Shown here piece by piece: positions 1,476 through 9,051 of a stretch of 9,467 nucleotides of DNA (positions are counted from its first letter, which is position 1; every line of letters begins with the position of its first letter). The notes below the pieces were generated by a model. The model ran no database searches and was not told the origin of the DNA. It saw nothing but the letters and a program-made list of their open reading frames with translations. The position numbers were made by a program, and so were the translations under genes. The stretch is from a virus. Its lineage: Duplodnaviria > Heunggongvirae > Uroviricota > Caudoviricetes. The stretch lies in IMG/VR virus record IMGVR_UViG_2695420579_000007; one strand, given 5' to 3'.

Positions 1476-2006
1476 TTAGGCGCGACGGCCTTTTTGTGCA
1501 GCTAACCACCGCGCAACCGTACGATCCATTGATTCTTTTTTATCTTTCATCTCCTGAAGCATGTGTTCTTGATCTTCTTTCGGAAAAGCTCTGAACGTAT
1601 GGATTAAATCTCGTTCCATCGGCTCTACGGCAAACGGTAGTTCATCCTCTGTTTGTTCTGTGTCTGCTGGTAATGCGACTATGTTATCTTGCTGTGGTTC
1701 TCGACAATACATCCTTGCAATTTGCAGCAAATCTACCATGTCTGGCCTGATTGACTCAGGGGGAACTTTCAGTAAGCCAGCAAACTTTAGAACAGCCTCA
1801 AGGTTTAGTGGGGTTTGACCATTTAGGTAGTGACTTACCGCCCCTTGTGTTGAAAACCCCATAATTTCCGCCGCACGTTCCTGAGTCAATCCCAACTGAG
1901 ATTTCTTTGCCATCCAGATTTCTTTCAGTCTTCTGGCGGCGTTGAGGTCGGTGTCTGACAATGATTTTCTTTTCATACATCCAATTCTAATAAGATTGCT
2001 AATCAC
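1476..2006 (-). CDS. paaR: CI-type HTH (XRE-family) transcriptional regulator, PaaR-like prophage repressor (176 aa; start possibly at the internal Met 11)
   Basis: N-terminal HTH (LTQERAAEIMGFSTQGAVSHYLNG). No S24 peptidase-like C-terminal domain recognisable. First gene of the operon and divergent from the Cro-like gene across an operator-bearing intergenic region. Confidence 0.75.
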   Translation of the reverse strand: MISNLIRIGCMKRKSLSDTDLNAARRLKEIWMAKKSQLGLTQERAAEIMGFSTQGAVSHYLNGQTPLNLEAVLKFAGLLKVPPESIRPDMVDLLQIARMYCREPQQDNIVALPADTEQTEDELPFAVEPMERDLIHTFRAFPKEDQEHMLQEMKDKKESMDRTVARWLAAQKGRRA

Positions 2007-2773: not shown

Positions 2774-2844
2774 CTGACAATAGCCATATCGAATCGCTCC
2801 CGGCAACTCGTGAGTAAAAAGATTCGGTATCAGAAGAGGTGAGT

Positions 2845-3909
2845 ATGGCTAACGCCTGGCTCAGATTATGGCATGACATGCCAAATGACCCTAAGTGGCG
2901 AACAATTGCCAGGGTGTCAGGGCAGCCAATTGCAACAGTGATGGCAGTGTATATCCACCTCCTGGTGAGCGCGTCACGAAATGTCACGCGAGGTCACATT
3001 GATGTCACGACAGAAGATTTGGCAAGTGCGCTCGACGTGACAGAAGAGGTAATTGATTCAATTTTGCAGACGATGCAGGGGCGGGTACTTGATGGTGATT
3101 TAATCACTGGATGGGAAAAACGCCAGGTGCTTAAAGAGGACAACGGCAATATTTCGCAAACCGCAAAATCTCCTGCAGAGCGCAAGAGGGCGCAGCGAGA
3201 GAGGGAAAGAAAGCGGGAACAAAATGGCGATTGTCACGGCGCGTCACGAAATGTCACGCACATGTCACGACGAGTCACGACAGATACAGATAAAGATACA
3301 GATAAAGAAGATCAAAACACTATGGTCCATGGCGTAAAAAACGCCACGAACCAGGCAGGGGATGTTCAGACCGTCAATCCTGGTCAGCCAGCAGGCTCGA
3401 CACCGGAAGCCGATTCAGCGTATGCGCTGAAAGCCGATTCGGGCGCTGTGCAGCAGGTGATGACCGCAAGGCCGGAGCAATCACTCCAACTGCAGCAGCC
3501 TGAAGCCGATTCCGCCATTCAGCGGGAAGCCGATCGGGTAGCCCCGGAAAACACCGGGCAGCCTGTGGGACGAGTGGATTATCCGGATGTGTTCGAACAG
3601 GTCTGGCGGGAATACCCGTTGCGTGCCGGGGCAAACCCGAAGAAATCCGCATTCAGTGCCTGGAAGGCCAGATTGCGCGAGGGGGTGCCACCAGAGACCA
3701 TGCTGGATGGTGTGAGGCGTTACGCGAGATACCTGGCGGCGACCGGGAAAGCGGGAACGGAATTTGTTCAGCGAGCGACGACGTTTTTTGGGCCGGACCG
3801 GAATTTTGAAAACCCCTGGTTGCTCCCGGTAAGCGGCACGAACAACCAGCGTTGTGTGAATCATATTTCTGAACCGGATACCGAAATTCCGCCGGGATTC
3901 AGGGGGTGA
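2845..3909 (+). CDS. phage replication initiation / replisome organiser protein (O-like), about 354 aa
   Basis: Track ORF starts at GTG 2839; ATG 2845 has GAGGTGA 7 nt upstream. Basic linker (AERKRAQRERERKRE). Two iteron clusters inside the gene. Ends IPPGFRG, 6 nt before the DnaC-like gene. A paralogous C-terminus is seen at 7429-7698. Confidence 0.8.
   Translation: MANAWLRLWHDMPNDPKWRTIARVSGQPIATVMAVYIHLLVSASRNVTRGHIDVTTEDLASALDVTEEVIDSILQTMQGRVLDGDLITGWEKRQVLKEDNGNISQTAKSPAERKRAQRERERKREQNGDCHGASRNVTHMSRRVTTDTDKDTDKEDQNTMVHGVKNATNQAGDVQTVNPGQPAGSTPEADSAYALKADSGAVQQVMTARPEQSLQLQQPEADSAIQREADRVAPENTGQPVGRVDYPDVFEQVWREYPLRAGANPKKSAFSAWKARLREGVPPETMLDGVRRYARYLAATGKAGTEFVQRATTFFGPDRNFENPWLLPVSGTNNQRCVNHISEPDTEIPPGFRG
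2971..3041. repeat. iteron cluster A: four direct GTCAC(G/A) repeats in helical phase plus one inverted copy
   Basis: GTCACG at 2973, 2983 and 3004 and GTCACA at 2993 (spacings 10, 10, 11 bp); inverted CGTGAC at 3036-3041. The 19-mer GCGTCACGAAATGTCACGC (2971-2989) recurs exactly at 3241-3259. Confidence 0.55.
3233..3306. repeat. iteron cluster B (five phased GTCACG repeats) followed by an A-rich 12-bp tandem duplication; candidate replication origin
   Basis: GTCACG at 3233, 3243, 3253, 3264, 3274 (spacings 10, 10, 11, 10 bp), then GATACAGATAAA twice (3283-3294 and 3295-3306). Iterons plus an adjacent A-rich stretch inside the initiator gene parallels lambda ori inside gene O. Confidence 0.5.
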
Positions 3910-3915
3910 TGTGGC

Positions 3916-4662
3916 ATGAAAAACATTGCGGCAGCCGGGGTTCTTGAACGTATTCACAGACTTGCACCACAGGGGGCGGTTCCACCGTACCGGACGGTGG
4001 AGGAGTGGCGGGAATGGCAACTTGCTGAAGGACGAAAACGCAGCGAGGAGATTAACCGCCAGAATCGCCAGTTGCGGGTGGAAAAAATCCTGAATCGTTC
4101 GGGCATCCAGCCTCTGCACAGCAAATGCTCGTTTGCGAATTATCAGGTGCAGAACGACGGGCAAAAATACGCGCTGAGCCAGGCCAAATCCATAGCTGAC
4201 GAACTGATGACCGGGTGCACGAATTTTGTGTTCAGCGGTAAAACCGGCACCGGGAAAAATCACCTTGCAGCGGCGATGGGTAACCGGCTGATGGCGAAGG
4301 GGCGCAGCGTGATTATCGTCACCGAGTCTGATGTCATGAGCGTGTTGCATGACAGCTACGACAACGGCAAATCCGGTGAAAAATTTTTACAGGAGCTTTG
4401 CGGGGTTGATTTGCTGGTCCTGGATGAAATAGGCATTCAGCGGGAGACGAAAAACGAGCAGGTGGTATTGCACCAGATAATTGATCGCCGGACAGCATCA
4501 CTGTGCAGTGTCGGGATGTTAACAAACCTGAATCATGCCGCAATGAGCACGCTTCTTGGTGAGAGGATTATGGACCGCATGACCATGAACGGTTGTCGGT
4601 GGGTGACGTTTAACTGGGATAGCTGGCGTTCAAATGTCAGCTTTCCGGGAGTTGTGAAGTAA
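3916..4662 (+). CDS. DnaC-like helicase loader (IstB-like AAA+ ATPase), prophage replication protein, 248 aa
   Basis: Walker A (SGKTGTGKNHLAAA) and Walker B (LLVLDEIG) motifs. SD GGGGGTGA upstream of ATG 3916. Follows the O-like gene by 6 nt. Confidence 0.9.
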   Translation: MKNIAAAGVLERIHRLAPQGAVPPYRTVEEWREWQLAEGRKRSEEINRQNRQLRVEKILNRSGIQPLHSKCSFANYQVQNDGQKYALSQAKSIADELMTGCTNFVFSGKTGTGKNHLAAAMGNRLMAKGRSVIIVTESDVMSVLHDSYDNGKSGEKFLQELCGVDLLVLDEIGIQRETKNEQVVLHQIIDRRTASLCSVGMLTNLNHAAMSTLLGERIMDRMTMNGCRWVTFNWDSWRSNVSFPGVVK

Positions 4663-5424: not shown

Positions 5425-5556
5425 ATGGCAAAAGTATTTACACAGGAAGAGCGGGAAAAAATTAAGGGGCAGGTTGTTGAACTCGTACGCCAGAGTGGGC
5501 GCGAGACGTTACGACAACGCTCCGATGGAAAGCTTCTGGGGAACGCTGAAAAATGA
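5425..5556 (+). pseudogene. truncated 5' fragment of a small gene (31 native codons), fused out of frame to IS600-derived sequence
   Basis: ATG 5425; MAKVFTQEEREKIKGQVVELVRQSGRETLRQ is native up to 5518, then reads IS600 interior to a stop at 5554-5556. 5467-5518 is identical to 9052-9103, where the rest of the gene continues after the N gap. Confidence 0.6.
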
Positions 5557-5756
5557 GAGCCTGAGCCACTATCGTTTTAATAACCGGGATGAAGCCATCT
5601 CAGTAATACGGGAATACATTGAGATTTTCTACAATCGTCAGCGTCGTCACTCTCGTCTGGGGAATATCTCCCCGGCAGCCTTCAGGGAAAAATATCATCA
5701 GATGGCTGCTTAAAAAAAGAACAAATGGTAGTGTCCGCTATTGCCAGTACACCTCA
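5519..5756 (+). mobile_element. partial IS600 copy: 238-bp right-end fragment in inverted orientation relative to the complete IS600
   Basis: Exact reverse complement of 5758-5995, ending in the IS terminus ...CCTCA at 5756. Carries the last 65 codons of the transposase frame. Its inner boundary is an IS-interior position, not an IS end, so it is not a simple transposition product. Confidence 0.8.
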
Positions 5757-5800
5757 NTGAGGTGTACTGGCAATAGCGGACACTACCATTTGTTCTTTTT

Positions 5801-6619
5801 TTAAGCAGCCATCTGATGATATTTTTCCCTGAAGGCTGCCGGGGAGATATTCCCCAGACGAGAGTGACGACGCTGACGATTGTAGAAAATCTCAATGTAT
5901 TCCCGTATTACTGAGATGGCTTCATCCCGGTTATTAAAACGATAGTGGCTCAGGCTCTCATTTTTCAGCGTTCCCCAGAAGCTTTCCATCGGAGCGTTGT
6001 CGTAACAGTTACCTTTACGCGACATTGATGTTTTCAGACCAGACTGCTCCTGTATGACCCGGTAATCGTATGCGCAGTACTGTGAACCTCGATCAGAGTG
6101 GTGGATTAGCCCGGCAGGTGGGCGCTGGCTCCTGAGCGCCATAAACAGGGCTTTACCTGTCAGCTCTTTTGTCATGCGCTCTCCCATGGCGTAGCCGACA
6201 ATTTCGCACGTATAAACATCTTTGATGCCAGCGAGGTACAACCATCCCTCCTGTGTGGCAACATACGTCAGGTCCGCCACCCAGACCTGATTTGGTGCTG
6301 TAGGAGCGAACGTCTGGTTCAGCAGATTTGGCGCAACTGGCAGATTGTGGTTCGAGTTCGTAGTCGCTCTGAACTTGCGTTTCTGCTTACAGCGTAGCCT
6401 TAGCTCCTTACGAAGACGTGCCAGTCGGTCACGACCAACGATGATGCCATTCTCTGCCAGCTCCGTCTGGAGCCGCCGGGTTCCATATGTTTCGCGAGTG
6501 CGGATATGTGCCACCTTAATCTCCAGTTTTAGCCGCTCATCACTTTGTTTTCTGTCTGAGGGTTCATGCTGTACCCAGTTGTAATAACCGCTCCTGGATA
6601 CACCAAATACCTGACACAT
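5801..6619 (-). CDS. IS600 OrfB (DDE transposase catalytic domain), 272 aa as an independent ORF; expressed as OrfAB fusion by -1 frameshifting
   Basis: The OrfB frame is open upstream of ATG 6619 back through the slippery site. Frame is -1 relative to OrfA. Confidence 0.9.
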   Translation of the reverse strand: MCQVFGVSRSGYYNWVQHEPSDRKQSDERLKLEIKVAHIRTRETYGTRRLQTELAENGIIVGRDRLARLRKELRLRCKQKRKFRATTNSNHNLPVAPNLLNQTFAPTAPNQVWVADLTYVATQEGWLYLAGIKDVYTCEIVGYAMGERMTKELTGKALFMALRSQRPPAGLIHHSDRGSQYCAYDYRVIQEQSGLKTSMSRKGNCYDNAPMESFWGTLKNESLSHYRFNNRDEAISVIREYIEIFYNRQRRHSRLGNISPAAFREKYHQMAA

Positions 6620-6957: not shown

Positions 6958-7021
6958 TATTAGCTCCTTCTGATGCCATTCTATTTCAGGAAGGAGTGTC
7001 CGTTAAACTCAGGCTACCTCA

Positions 7022-7698
7022 GGTTATTCGCTTCTGGGCATGGGCGGATCAACAAATGATAGACGGTAATGCAGATTGTAACGCTCGCGGCGTTACAAAA
7101 AGTGCAATAGATCGCATCACTTTTATGTCTGGTTTTGCTGATGCGTTAATTCAGGTTGGATGGCTGGTCGAAAATGACGGAGGGCTTTCTCTACCTAACT
7201 TTGAACGTCATAACGGAAAAAGCTCTAAAAAAAACGGGCGGTTACAAACGAGCGAGTAACAAAAATACGCGAACTGAAACGAAAAGGTAACGCTGCCAGC
7301 GTTACACAAACGGATCAAAAAGCGTTACCAGAGGAAGAGGAAGAGGAAGATCTAAATACTGATCTCCCCCTCGCCAAAAACGAGCGTCTAAAAAATTCGA
7401 GCCGGAGGCTATTGAGCTGCCCGATTGGTTGCCGGAAACACTCTGGCATGAGTGGGTCCGGTTCAGACAGGCATTGCGAAAACCGATTCGAACGGAGCAG
7501 GGCGCTAACGGGGCGATACGGGAACTGGAAAAATTCCGTCAGCAGGGTTTTACACCTGAGCAGGTGATTCGACACAGCATCGCCAATGAATACCAGGGCC
7601 TGTTCGCGCCGAAAGGTGTTCGGCCTGAGACGTTGCTCCGACAGGTTAACACCGTCTCGTTGCCGGACAGTGCGATCCCGCCAGGCTTCAGGGGGTAA
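7022..7698 (+). pseudogene. second O-like replication initiator gene: 5' end removed by IS600 and two frameshifts at poly-A runs
   Basis: Reading frame starts directly at the IS600 boundary (VIRFWAWADQQ..., resembling AWLRLWHDMPND near the N-terminus of the first O-like protein). Frame changes at A8 (7227-7234) and at A6 (7390-7395). C-terminus ends IPPGFRG 6 nt before the DnaC-like gene, exactly as in module 1. No GTCACG iterons. Confidence 0.7.
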
Positions 7699-8824: not shown

Positions 8825-9051
8825 NNNNNNNNNNNNNNNNNNNNNNNNNNNNNNNNNNNNNNNNNNNNNNNNNNNNNNNNNNNNNNNNNNNNNNNNNNNN
8901 NNNNNNNNNNNNNNNNNNNNNNNNNNNNNNNNNNNNNNNNNNNNNNNNNNNNNNNNNNNNNNNNNNNNNNNNNNNNNNNNNNNNNNNNNNNNNNNNNNNN
9001 NNNNNNNNNNNNNNNNNNNNNNNNNNNNNNNNNNNNNNNNNNNNNNNNNNN
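8825..9051. other. assembly gap (227 N)
   Basis: Run of n characters. The flanks are two near-identical gene copies, so this looks like a repeat-induced scaffold break. Confidence 1.

Follow-up and report, generated by a model that had tools for sequence, protein, structure and literature searches.

We propose that positions 2969-3325 of the window, that is, of the whole 9,467-nucleotide stretch of DNA analysed here, constitute the origin from which a lambdoid-type prophage replicates, an element lying inside the gene of its own initiator and composed of iterons and an unwinding element; judging from the sequence, we assign this reading a probability of roughly 0.8. The initial annotation had pointed to a candidate origin of phased initiator repeats and an A-rich region within this gene, and all of the sequence-level tests that were run support that proposal. 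The elements of the putative origin and the genes that bear on it are the following:

2845-3909, plus strand: replication initiator gene, 'phage replisome organizer', 354 aa, ATG start at 2845 with an alternative GTG at 2839.
2973-3009, plus strand: iteron array 1, four (T)GTCAC(G/A) hexamers at 2973, 2983, 2993 and 3004, with spacings of 10, 10 and 11 bp; GTCACG at 2973, 2983 and 3004, GTCACA at 2993.
3036-3041, minus strand: inverted hexamer, single copy, CGTGAC on the plus strand, 63 nt past the first hexamer.
3233-3279, plus strand: iteron array 2, five GTCACG hexamers at 3233, 3243, 3253, 3264 and 3274, with spacings of 10, 10, 11 and 10 bp.
2969-2989 = 3239-3259, plus strand: exact 21-bp duplication common to both arrays, GCGCGTCACGAAATGTCACGC.
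3280-3323, plus strand: candidate DNA-unwinding element, an A-rich, purine-skewed tandem repeat (ACAGAT/ACAGATAAAGAT) with an A-rich continuation.
3323-3353, no strand assigned: imperfect palindrome, GGTCCATGGCGT AAAAA ACGCCACGAACC, located where the exchangeable C-terminal module begins.
3916-4662, plus strand: DnaC/IstB-like helicase-loader gene (Pfam IstB_IS21, E=3e-19; PHROG 50).
7021-7698, plus strand: second initiator, degraded and of a related subfamily, its 5' end truncated by IS600 and its frame shifted (PHROG 2509/6451).

The nine GTCAC(G/A) direct repeats were found where the initial annotation had placed them, in two clusters with 10-11 bp between neighbors, and so were the inverted copy and the A-rich 12-bp tandem repeat behind the second cluster (3282-3308); the exact duplication, which had been reported as 19 bp long, is real and extends over 21 bp. 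As this duplication is shared by both arrays, gene conversion or concerted evolution between them is suggested. The total of GTCACR sites in the window is unremarkable (12 against 8.5 expected), and it is their clustering that stands out: 10 of the 12 fall within 307 nt, and in 2000 dinucleotide-preserving shuffles no 342-nt span held more than 5 sites, compared with the 10 observed. Array 1 is written in the DNA encoding residues 43-55, which cover the last part of helix 29-45 together with the loop preceding the helix-turn-helix, while the DNA of array 2 codes for the disordered interdomain linker (residues 130-145). Comparison of the sequences supports the inverted copy less well than the two arrays: roughly one in two GTCACG-clade loci has it at an equal offset, and in the GCAACG clade its counterpart, CGTTGC, occurs at +65 both in Ralstonia phage Hennie and in Cupriavidus but is absent from the two Burkholderia loci.

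The candidate unwinding element starts directly 3' of the last hexamer. A tandem repeat of AGATACAGATAA was detected there in 2.2 copies (TRF, 3282-3308), an alternative reading being 4.8 copies of ACAGAT from 3280, and the 12-bp unit varies from 2 to about 7 copies among E. coli strains. Of all 40-mers in the gene, the one beginning at 3284 is the least stable (dG of -43.2 against a gene mean of -57.7, sd 3.8), and it ranks second least stable across the whole window. The tract is selected for AT-rich codons: among 47 relatives AT-rich synonymous codons are favoured within it, GAT being used in 97% of cases against 50% elsewhere and AAA in 87% against 55%. The repeat is also frame-locked, with GAT standing as a codon in 45 of 46 loci, and part of its conservation may reflect the D/K/T-rich linker peptide. 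Directly 3' of it, at about 3313-3316, lies the junction with other E. coli initiators. The palindrome at 3323-3353 may, with some uncertainty, be a third element of the origin, as hinted by the sequences of PhiR5_2 and 75/02 Stx, which carry GGCGA AAAAA TCGCC and hence a compensatory double change, and by palindromes being weakly enriched family-wide in the 130 nt after array 2. Because one compensatory change and a weak enrichment are insufficient, we do not call it part of the origin. A promoter and terminator scan gave nothing above shuffle expectation, the palindrome being flagged by it as terminator-like on the minus strand.

The initiator comprises an N-terminal winged-helix domain (residues 1-95), whose fold resembles that of DnaD-NTD, a basic helix (110-127), a disordered linker (about 128-245), a helical C-domain (247-315) and, finally, a DnaT-like C-terminal tail. 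The PGAP/NCBI name of the protein is 'phage replisome organizer', and PHROG 'replisome organizer' families were matched with E=2e-5 and 4e-4. The match to Phage_rep_org_N (PF09681) is below threshold (E=0.013, 15.9 bits against a gathering cutoff of 23.3), with positions 1-119 of the 121 in the profile aligned, and a search of the PDB with an N-domain profile gave no meaningful match. Immediately downstream, where organizer systems are expected to have a helicase loader gene, lies a gene whose product matches the NCBIfam models PRK12377 (E=2.4e-150) and DnaC (E=1.9e-88); this DnaC-like loader is presumed to be the partner recruited by the C-terminal domain of the initiator.

Based on this arrangement, we hypothesize that the (T)GTCACG hexamers are the sites to which the initiator attaches through its N-terminal winged-helix domain. 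Since the sites are one helical turn apart and in the same orientation, each array would place four to five protomers on a single face of the DNA, and the arrays, 260 bp apart, could be bridged through protein-protein contacts. The oriented complex on array 2 would adjoin the A-rich tandem repeat, the least stable duplex of the gene, which would melt, and the exchangeable C-terminal domain with its DnaT-like tail would recruit the loader encoded next to it and the host DnaB. Binding, melting and helicase loading are the activities that we infer for the initiator.

The same layout recurs widely in the family. At least three adjacent identical pentamers at 10/11-bp spacing, within the first 600 nt of the gene, are present in 61 of 74 relatives and in none of 534 flanking control windows, and, counted from the start of the gene, the arrays cover about nt 125-165 and 350-430. 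Array 2 is the most constant element; the low-stability A-rich tract always adjoins it, in a fixed orientation, and from one bacterial group to another the AGATA(A/C)AGA repeat that follows it hardly varies. Some relatives (L003, L136, L137, L144, L150 and L156) have lost array 1 or have only a degenerate form of it, and array 1 may for this reason be accessory or regulatory, outside the minimal origin. In phage Tritos, whose genome is complete, the sole GTCACG cluster is found in the organizer gene, which holds 9 of the 25 sites in 46 kb. A scan of viral contigs returned only relatives at least 98% identical.

The hexamer itself varies by lineage (GTCACG, GTAACG, CGAACG, GCAACG or GTGACG), and the top hexamer is identical in both arrays of one gene at 49 of 58 loci, compared with 16.5 expected and a permutation maximum of 28. 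The motif is independent of the host: Pseudomonas has GTCACG and GTGACG types, the present window has GTCACG and GTAACGC types, and GTCACG is spread over Escherichia, Pseudomonas, Bordetella, Stenotrophomonas and Desulfovibrio-like genomes. Likewise, it is independent of the partner gene, which may be DnaC-like, Toprim plus DnaB-like, lambda-P-like or a DnaB helicase, and in relatives the position after the organizer is occupied by DnaB, P-like or primase-helicase genes. The N-terminal domain and its hexamer are inherited together, irrespective of the host, the C-domain or the helicase partner. The comparison with related prophages advised in the initial annotation accordingly bore out the co-variation, as hexamer type tracks the initiator N-domain across the 74 relatives, though some of this is expected from shared descent alone, given the physical linkage of array 2 to the N-domain.

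The degraded second initiator of the window, compared with its intact E. coli homologue (L163, 1098-1886), provides an example of another motif. It contains GTAACGC/GCGTTAC at 7078-7096, 7241-7260, 7287-7305 and 7322-7328, with a purine repeat, AGAGGA, 3' of these motifs at 7330-7353, and the pairs occupy positions equivalent to those of the GTCACG arrays. The earlier description of this gene as having no such iterons is correct as far as GTCACG is concerned, but the gene does carry repeats of its own; the different origin specificity deduced from it stands, whereas the reason then given does not.

Several other explanations of the repeats were weighed against an origin. It is extremely improbable that they have no function as DNA and arose merely because the gene codes for a repetitive peptide, or else through neutral slippage during replication or through gene conversion. 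The peptides do look repetitive (ASRNVT twice, TDTDKDTDK), and both the exact 21-bp duplication and the variable copy number of the 12-bp repeat would fit such a history. However, the hexamers begin in all three codon phases, and the gene holds nine of them against 1.94 +/- 1.12 (maximum 6) across 5000 synonymous-codon permutations. Furthermore, in 24 non-redundant GTCACG-clade loci the third-codon positions within array-1 hexamers show a conservation of 0.92, compared with 0.52 at other amino-acid-conserved codons (p=8.7e-6). The DNA motif also survives where the peptide changes: Pseudomonas phage phita81A, with an N-domain 69.5% identical, has 4+4 GTCACG at identical spacings and an A-rich tail, and preserves array 2 as DNA although the encoded linker peptide differs. 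In addition, the layout is kept across many bacterial groups, with motif switches matched in both arrays. Extra hexamers in relatives are insertions in the array-1 loop. The repeats are conserved as DNA and under DNA-level selection, not as amino-acid repeats. Coding constraint as their sole cause, which the initial annotation had named as the outcome that would speak against an origin, is ruled out by the codon-phase, synonymous-permutation and third-position tests.

If the repeats are selected as DNA, they could still be sites of the initiator used mainly for control, through autorepression, a transcriptional roadblock in the initiator/loader operon, titration or handcuffing, with initiation occurring elsewhere or at array 2 alone. 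We consider this unlikely, even though transcription of the initiator's own operon runs through both arrays, array 1 is 260 bp from the A-rich tract, and L144, L150, L156 and L137 have no array 1 and a larger array 2, of 6-8 copies; in iteron plasmids, the same sites serve initiation and control, which also speaks for a control function. Such a function is most plausible for array 1 alone. The constant apposition of array 2 and the low-stability tract is, in contrast, the anatomy of an origin, no alternative hexamer cluster is available in a complete phage genome to be the real one, and the roles in initiation and control can coexist. Less likely still is the binding of some other protein, such as a host factor, a centromere-binding protein of the ParR type, or one of the nearby HTH proteins (YdaT/cII-like or DUF1627/DUF977). 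Centromeres of the ParR type, such as parC of plasmid R1, have two sets of direct repeats of about 11 bp; certain partition sites are thus similar to the two sets of short, helically phased direct repeats seen here, and several small HTH proteins are indeed encoded near the initiator. Nevertheless, the motif follows the initiator N-domain and neither the host nor the neighboring genes, differing motifs occur inside one genus, the neighboring genes are wholly different in phita81A and Hennie, and partition genes are absent from the window.

An origin recognized by the product of the gene in which it lies, the reading that we favour, invites comparison with lambda ori. The layout of lambda ori in an O-like gene, as originally claimed, holds for the phased repeats followed by an A-rich tract within an initiator gene, and fails for homology to O and for the plan of the arrays. 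In a BLASTP comparison with lambda O (E=0.15) the low-complexity linker alone was aligned, and there was no match to a Pfam O family; the gene is O-like by analogy only. In both systems the repeats are in the DNA for the interdomain region and a purine-rich A tract follows directly 3' on the coding strand (in lambda after iteron 4), in the window at the boundary between the specificity and loader halves. Also in both, the N-terminal half and the origin are exchanged as one module that sets specificity, with the C-terminal half paired to the helicase loader. Lambda ori has a palindrome beyond its A-rich tract, to which that at 3323-3353 may correspond. Lambda, however, has one array of four dyad-symmetric 18-bp iterons (~18-19 bp) spaced 20-24 bp, whereas in the window the units are asymmetric, 6-7 bp long and spaced 10-11 bp, and form two arrays separated by 260 bp, and the lambda partner is P instead of a DnaC-like protein, although some N-domain relatives do pair with P-like proteins.

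Two separated origin parts served by one initiator, with octamer iterons in phased arrays, are also found in ori/crr of the satellite phage P4, but there the initiator is the alpha primase-helicase and the parts are kilobases apart, not both in the region coding for a DNA-binding domain. The RepA/pi iteron origins of plasmids have units of about 17-22 bp, usually DnaA boxes, and an intergenic oriV, in contrast to the intragenic units of 6-7 bp seen here; no DnaA boxes were found in 2800-3400, and matches to them across the window are at chance level. A unit of 6-7 bp is short for an iteron, and this counts against an origin, as do the absence of nearby DnaA boxes and the sub-threshold Pfam match of the initiator. 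The primosomal winged-helix proteins DnaD and DnaB(Bsu) are among the closest known systems.

In phage SPP1, gp38 (G38P) binds direct repeats (AB boxes) of oriL inside gene 38, beside an AT-rich DUE, and a 356-bp fragment of oriL suffices (PMC6316719, PMC5737612). The window resembles it in the name that NCBI gives to its protein, in having the putative origin within the initiator's own gene and in an organizer that has no AAA+ domain and would hand over to a separate loader and helicase; direct repeats in the organizer gene adjoining an AT-rich unwinding element, a trait of the SPP1 type, are present here as in the 61 relatives mentioned above. The differences are the host, which for the window is Gram-negative, the DnaC-like partner in place of G39P/G40P, the two arrays in one gene, unlike oriL, and the second SPP1 origin, oriR, elsewhere in the genome, while Tritos, a relative, has no second cluster. 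Finally, in gene 18 of the P22-like phage L six imprecise 11-bp repeats (TGTCCAACGGA) were inferred by its authors to be an origin, and P22 gene 18 has four repeats of about 20 bp (PMC8022706). Phage L shares with the window the one-turn periodicity and the way in which the origin was inferred, and differs in its motif and in the one array reported.

More tentatively, and less probably than not, the family may use a conserved two-part origin or recognize AGATA(A/C)AGA. Array 1, written in the loop of the DNA-binding domain, could be a second anchor, for looping to array 2 or for copy control, and both arrays would evolve in concert at each specificity switch (GTCACG, GTAACG, GCAACG, CGAACG, GTGACG). 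By analogy with DnaA-trios, the AGATA(A/C)AGA repeat might be a specific single-stranded DNA recognition element and not merely AT-rich. If true, either array 1 as a second anchor or the single-stranded element would be something that the SPP1 and lambda models do not cover, and would also give a natural series of matched protein-DNA specificities.

The prophage is common in E. coli and Shigella, and the phage family, uncharacterised, is very widespread: the initiator gene is present in 2497 of 5426 complete E. coli genomes, and relatives of the initiator are found in prophages across many Proteobacteria and also outside them. An origin inside the initiator gene is an already known arrangement, and what is new here is its presence in this family; searches of the open-access literature on GTCACG iterons, GATAAAGATAAAGAT, replisome organizer iterons and oriJ/Rac gave no account of this origin type, and none seems to have been defined for the family. 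A defined origin would explain why the N-domain, the iterons and the A-rich tract move as one mosaic unit, would provide compact parts for vectors or for origin-based inhibition of phages, and would make it possible to predict both replication specificity and cross-interference among co-resident prophages, the window itself carrying two replication modules with different motifs. The matched motif switches, in turn, offer ready material for comparing how a winged-helix initiator shifts its DNA specificity while its sites overlap its own coding sequence.

The repeats carried within the initiator gene of this prophage are best accounted for as an origin in which iterons and an unwinding element lie inside the gene for the initiator, and it is probable, at roughly 80%, that replication of the prophage starts in this region, or that the region is at the least the core of the origin, where the initiator binds and the DNA unwinds. 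The initial annotation had placed a candidate origin here, and the core of that proposal is supported while three of its details are corrected below. The gene order around the initiator is that of the early-right region in lambdoid prophages, and the relevant features are:

1476-2006, minus strand: cI-like repressor gene, upstream
2061-2351: cro-like gene, upstream
2348-2773: YdaT/cII-like gene, upstream
2845-3909, plus strand: initiator gene, 354 codons, containing the repeats
2973, 2983, 2993 and 3004, plus strand: array 1, GTCACG/GTCACA hexamers, spacings 10, 10, 11
3036-3041: single inverted copy of the hexamer
3233, 3243, 3253, 3264 and 3274, plus strand: array 2, GTCACG hexamers, spacings 10, 10, 11, 10
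3282-3308: A-rich tandem repeat, 12-bp unit AGATACAGATAA, 2.2 copies
3323-3353: imperfect palindrome GGTCCATGGCGT AAAAA ACGCCACGAACC, just 3' of the A-rich repeat
3916-4662: DnaC/IstB-like ATPase gene, downstream
downstream of the initiator gene: DUF1627 gene

The two clusters of GTCAC(G/A) repeats spaced 10-11 bp apart and the inverted copy lie where the initial annotation had located them, and the 12-bp A-rich repeat reported after the second cluster is present, readable also as ACAGAT x4.8 starting at 3280. The exact duplication between the clusters exists as well, with a length of 21 bp (2969-2989 identical to 3239-3259) and not 19 bp. The total of GTCACR sites in the window is unremarkable (12 vs 8.5 expected), and it is their clustering that stands out, with 10 sites inside one 342-nt span vs 5 in the densest span of 2000 dinucleotide-preserving shuffles. 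Upstream, a PaaA2 antitoxin gene (1262-1456, PF21217) lies directly downstream of the cI-like helix-turn-helix gene and is followed by a ParE-family toxin gene (972-1262, PF05016), both on the minus strand; we take this layout to resemble the three-gene PaaR2-PaaA2-ParE2 module of E. coli O157 prophages, and the cI-like 'repressor' may be part of a module of that type.

The initiator protein belongs to PHROG 3729, 'replication initiation protein' (E=3e-250), and is named 'phage replisome organizer' at NCBI; the Pfam profile Phage_rep_org_N aligns over its whole length with the N-terminal 125 residues, at a sub-threshold score (E=0.013, 15.9 vs 23.3 bits). A lambda O homologue was ruled out as its identity (BLASTP E=0.15). 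An AlphaFold model built with 84 homologues as input confidently predicts an N-terminal domain at residues 1-95 (three helices, loop 46-55, helix-turn-helix 56-77, beta-hairpin 78-88), then a basic helix (110-127), a disordered stretch up to about residue 245 and a helical C-domain. According to this layout, array 1 codes for a helix end and surface loop of the DNA-binding domain (residues 43-55), and array 2 with the A-rich repeat for the start of the disordered linker (130-155). For the C-terminal tail (3835-3906) there is a match to the end of primosomal protein DnaT (NCBIfam NF002770, E=0.0016), the DnaT-like ssDNA-binding domain PF17948 is present in many relatives, and the sequence ...IPPGFRG ends both this protein and the second initiator (7627-7695), each directly before a DnaC-like gene, which hints that the tail is a DnaC-docking element. 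Of 5426 complete E. coli genomes, 2497 have a match to the gene, as do seven sequenced E. coli phages, Tritos and Evi among them. In Tritos (L164 32105-33638) a small hypothetical gene follows the organizer gene in place of a DnaC-like loader, and the origin module can thus occur without such a loader as its partner.

Since the repeats are embedded in coding sequence, they could be conserved merely as amino-acid repeats, an explanation the initial annotation had itself asked to be checked. The hexamers begin in all three codon phases, and when synonymous codons were permuted with the protein fixed, 1.94 +/- 1.12 hexamers were obtained (maximum 6 in 5000 trials) vs the nine observed. When 24 non-redundant relatives sharing the motif were aligned by codon, third-codon positions showed a conservation of 0.92 inside array-1 hexamers vs 0.52 at other codons with an amino acid at least 90% conserved (Mann-Whitney p=8.7e-6), and of only 0.29-0.42 in the spacer codons separating hexamers. 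In Pseudomonas phage phita81A, whose N-domain is 69.5% identical and whose C-domain is different, four GTCACG are retained at 10, 10, 11 spacing with an inverted copy at +63, and four further GTCACG at 10-bp spacing are followed by GATAAAGATACAGAAGAAGAG, even though its array 2 encodes a different peptide from that of the window. Codon phases, permutation, third positions and phita81A thus agree that the repeats are conserved as DNA, and the hexamers are under DNA-level selection.

The A-rich repeat is frame-locked, unlike the hexamers, with GAT as a codon in 45/46 loci, so part of its conservation may serve the D/K/T-rich linker peptide. Codon choice over the 15 codons from its start, compared with the rest of the same genes, points to selection on DNA: Lys is AAA in 87% vs 55%, Thr is almost always ACA, and Asp is GAT in 97% vs 50%, a figure for which choosing loci by their motif fixes about half of the GAT count, the ratio without those still being about 90 to 6. 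The least stable 40-mer of the initiator gene begins at 3284 (nearest-neighbour dG -43.2 vs a gene mean of -57.7, sd 3.8) and ranks second in the window, after the cI-like/cro-like intergenic region. Repeats of the form (C/T)AGATA(A/C)AGA run on from the last hexamer in nearly all related loci; within E. coli the 12-bp ACAGATAAAGAT copies vary from about 2 (window 3280-3308) to about 6-7 (L160 about 3444-3530, L161 about 644-718), always in frame, while array 2 is constant at five hexamers. The palindrome that follows reads GGCGA AAAAA TCGCC in the E. coli/Shigella phages PhiR5_2 and 75/02 Stx, through a compensatory pair of non-synonymous changes in the stem. Family-wide, the 130 nt after array 2 show a weak excess of palindromes (mean best stem 6.7 vs 6.1 pairs, p=1e-5), many taking the form CCCCCC-N-GGGGGG.

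When one genome per bacterial species was scanned, 74 loci were found to encode N-domain relatives (30-98% identity), in Gamma-, Beta- and Alphaproteobacteria, Desulfovibrio-like bacteria, Acidobacteria and others; 69 of these, the window and four phage loci made up the 74 loci analysed. A phased array, defined as at least three adjacent pairs of an identical pentamer 10 or 11 bp apart in the first 600 nt of the gene, was found in 61 of them vs 0/534 same-size flanking control windows, the arrays lying at about nt 125-165 and nt 350-430 of the gene. The hexamer is GTCACG in Escherichia, Pseudomonas, Bordetella, Serratia, Stenotrophomonas, Chromobacterium and others, GTAACG in Pantoea, Enterobacter and Marinobacter, CGAACG in many Beta- and Alphaproteobacteria, GCAACG in Ralstonia, Burkholderia and Cupriavidus, and GTGACG in some Pseudomonas. 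The two arrays of one gene are matched in motif, the top hexamer being identical in 49/58 loci vs 16.5 expected (maximum 28 in 10,000 permutations). Some relatives (L086, L111, L153, L154) carry additional hexamers as protein-loop insertions; the DNA array dictates and the protein loop tolerates it. In a minority (L003, L136, L137, L144, L150, L156) array 1 is weak or absent, and array 2 sets tend to be larger there.

The motif is linked to the N-domain. As the comparison of relatives advised by the initial annotation brought out, the hexamer goes with this domain and not with the host, GTCACG and GTGACG both occurring in Pseudomonas genomes and the window itself holding one GTCACG and one GTAACGC module, nor with the helicase partner, since GTCACG-type N-domains are followed by a DnaC-like loader in the window, a Toprim and DnaB-like protein in phita81A, a lambda-P-like protein in Aquitalea and a DnaB helicase in Stenotrophomonas. 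PhiR5_2 and 75/02 Stx share only the C-terminal half with the window, from about 3316, and have an unrelated N-terminal half with their own GAAGGGGCTTC repeats and purine-rich AACAGG repeat; the exchangeable unit is therefore the N-domain with both arrays and the A-rich repeat, which, judged from sequence, has the expected look of an origin-specificity module. In the complete Tritos genome (46 kb) the sole GTCACG cluster, 9/25 sites, sits in the initiator gene. Phage Stx2c_EH0474 (L165 540-680) has tandem GGTAGTGCAGGAGATTCAC-like units of ~19 bp at the equivalent position, and its initiator shares only the C-terminal part. This is a third repeat type, and E. coli prophages thus have at least four origin specificities joined to related C-terminal modules.

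The degraded second initiator, previously described as having no such iterons, does lack GTCACG but contains repeats of its own:

7078-7096: GTAACGC/GCGTTAC pair, in the loop homologous to array 1 (...NADCNARGVTK...)
7241-7260: pair with core GTTAC...GTAAC, linker
7287-7305: GTAACGC/GCGTTAC pair, linker
7322-7328: extra GCGTTAC, linker
7330-7353: AGAGGA purine repeat, after the GTAACGC/GCGTTAC motifs

With the first pair in the array-1-homologous loop and the others in the linker, this gene follows the plan of the first one, using another motif set in inverted pairs. The different origin specificity previously assigned to it was right, but not because iterons are absent from it. Compared with an intact E. 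coli homologue (L163 1098-1886, 263 codons including the stop, upstream of ydaV), the gene (7021-7698) is truncated 5' by IS600 at about 7020, is missing 10 nt and is frameshifted by one extra A within an A-run, and is therefore a pseudogene. A single N at 5757 lies between 249-nt perfect inverted arms (5508-6006), inside end copies of IS600 (IS3 family), and a run of 227 N occupies 8825-9051. These two sites have the appearance of scaffold joins at IS copies, and the two replication modules may therefore be neighbours only through an assembly artefact.

Among known systems, SPP1 oriL/G38P is the closest that is experimentally defined, a 356-bp fragment within gene 38 being necessary and sufficient in vitro (PMC5737612; PMC6316719). 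The closest textbook analogue is ori-lambda, and the likeness proposed earlier holds for the position inside the initiator gene and for the purine-rich A tract directly 3' of the iterons, on the coding strand after iteron 4 in lambda; it does not extend to protein homology or iteron form, which set the element outside the lambda O family. The element is likewise distinct from plasmid-type iteron origins, and anatomically it is of the replisome-organizer type, with a domain assignment that is borderline by sequence. There is a precedent for deducing an origin in the initiator gene of a lambdoid phage from short repeats at one-turn spacing, namely gene 18 of phage L with its six 11-bp repeats (PMC8022706). 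By analogy with SPP1 gp38/oriL and lambda O/ori, from which we infer initiator binding, melting and helicase loading, the hexamers would be bound by the winged-helix N-domain, and given one-turn spacing and uniform orientation 4-5 protomers would occupy one face per array. The array-2 complex would adjoin the A-rich tract and destabilise it, and the C-terminal domain would then bring in the DnaC-like loader with host DnaB; looping may bridge the two arrays, or array 1 may have a control function.

A search of the open-access literature turned up no description of this origin or of the family-wide two-array plan. We regard the element as one of an expected kind, with modest variations in its hexamer units, its two arrays and the placement of one array inside the sequence coding for the DNA-binding domain. 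Nonetheless, the family is very widespread and untouched by experiment, its putative origin is well defined here, and its members give a clean natural series of specificity switches.
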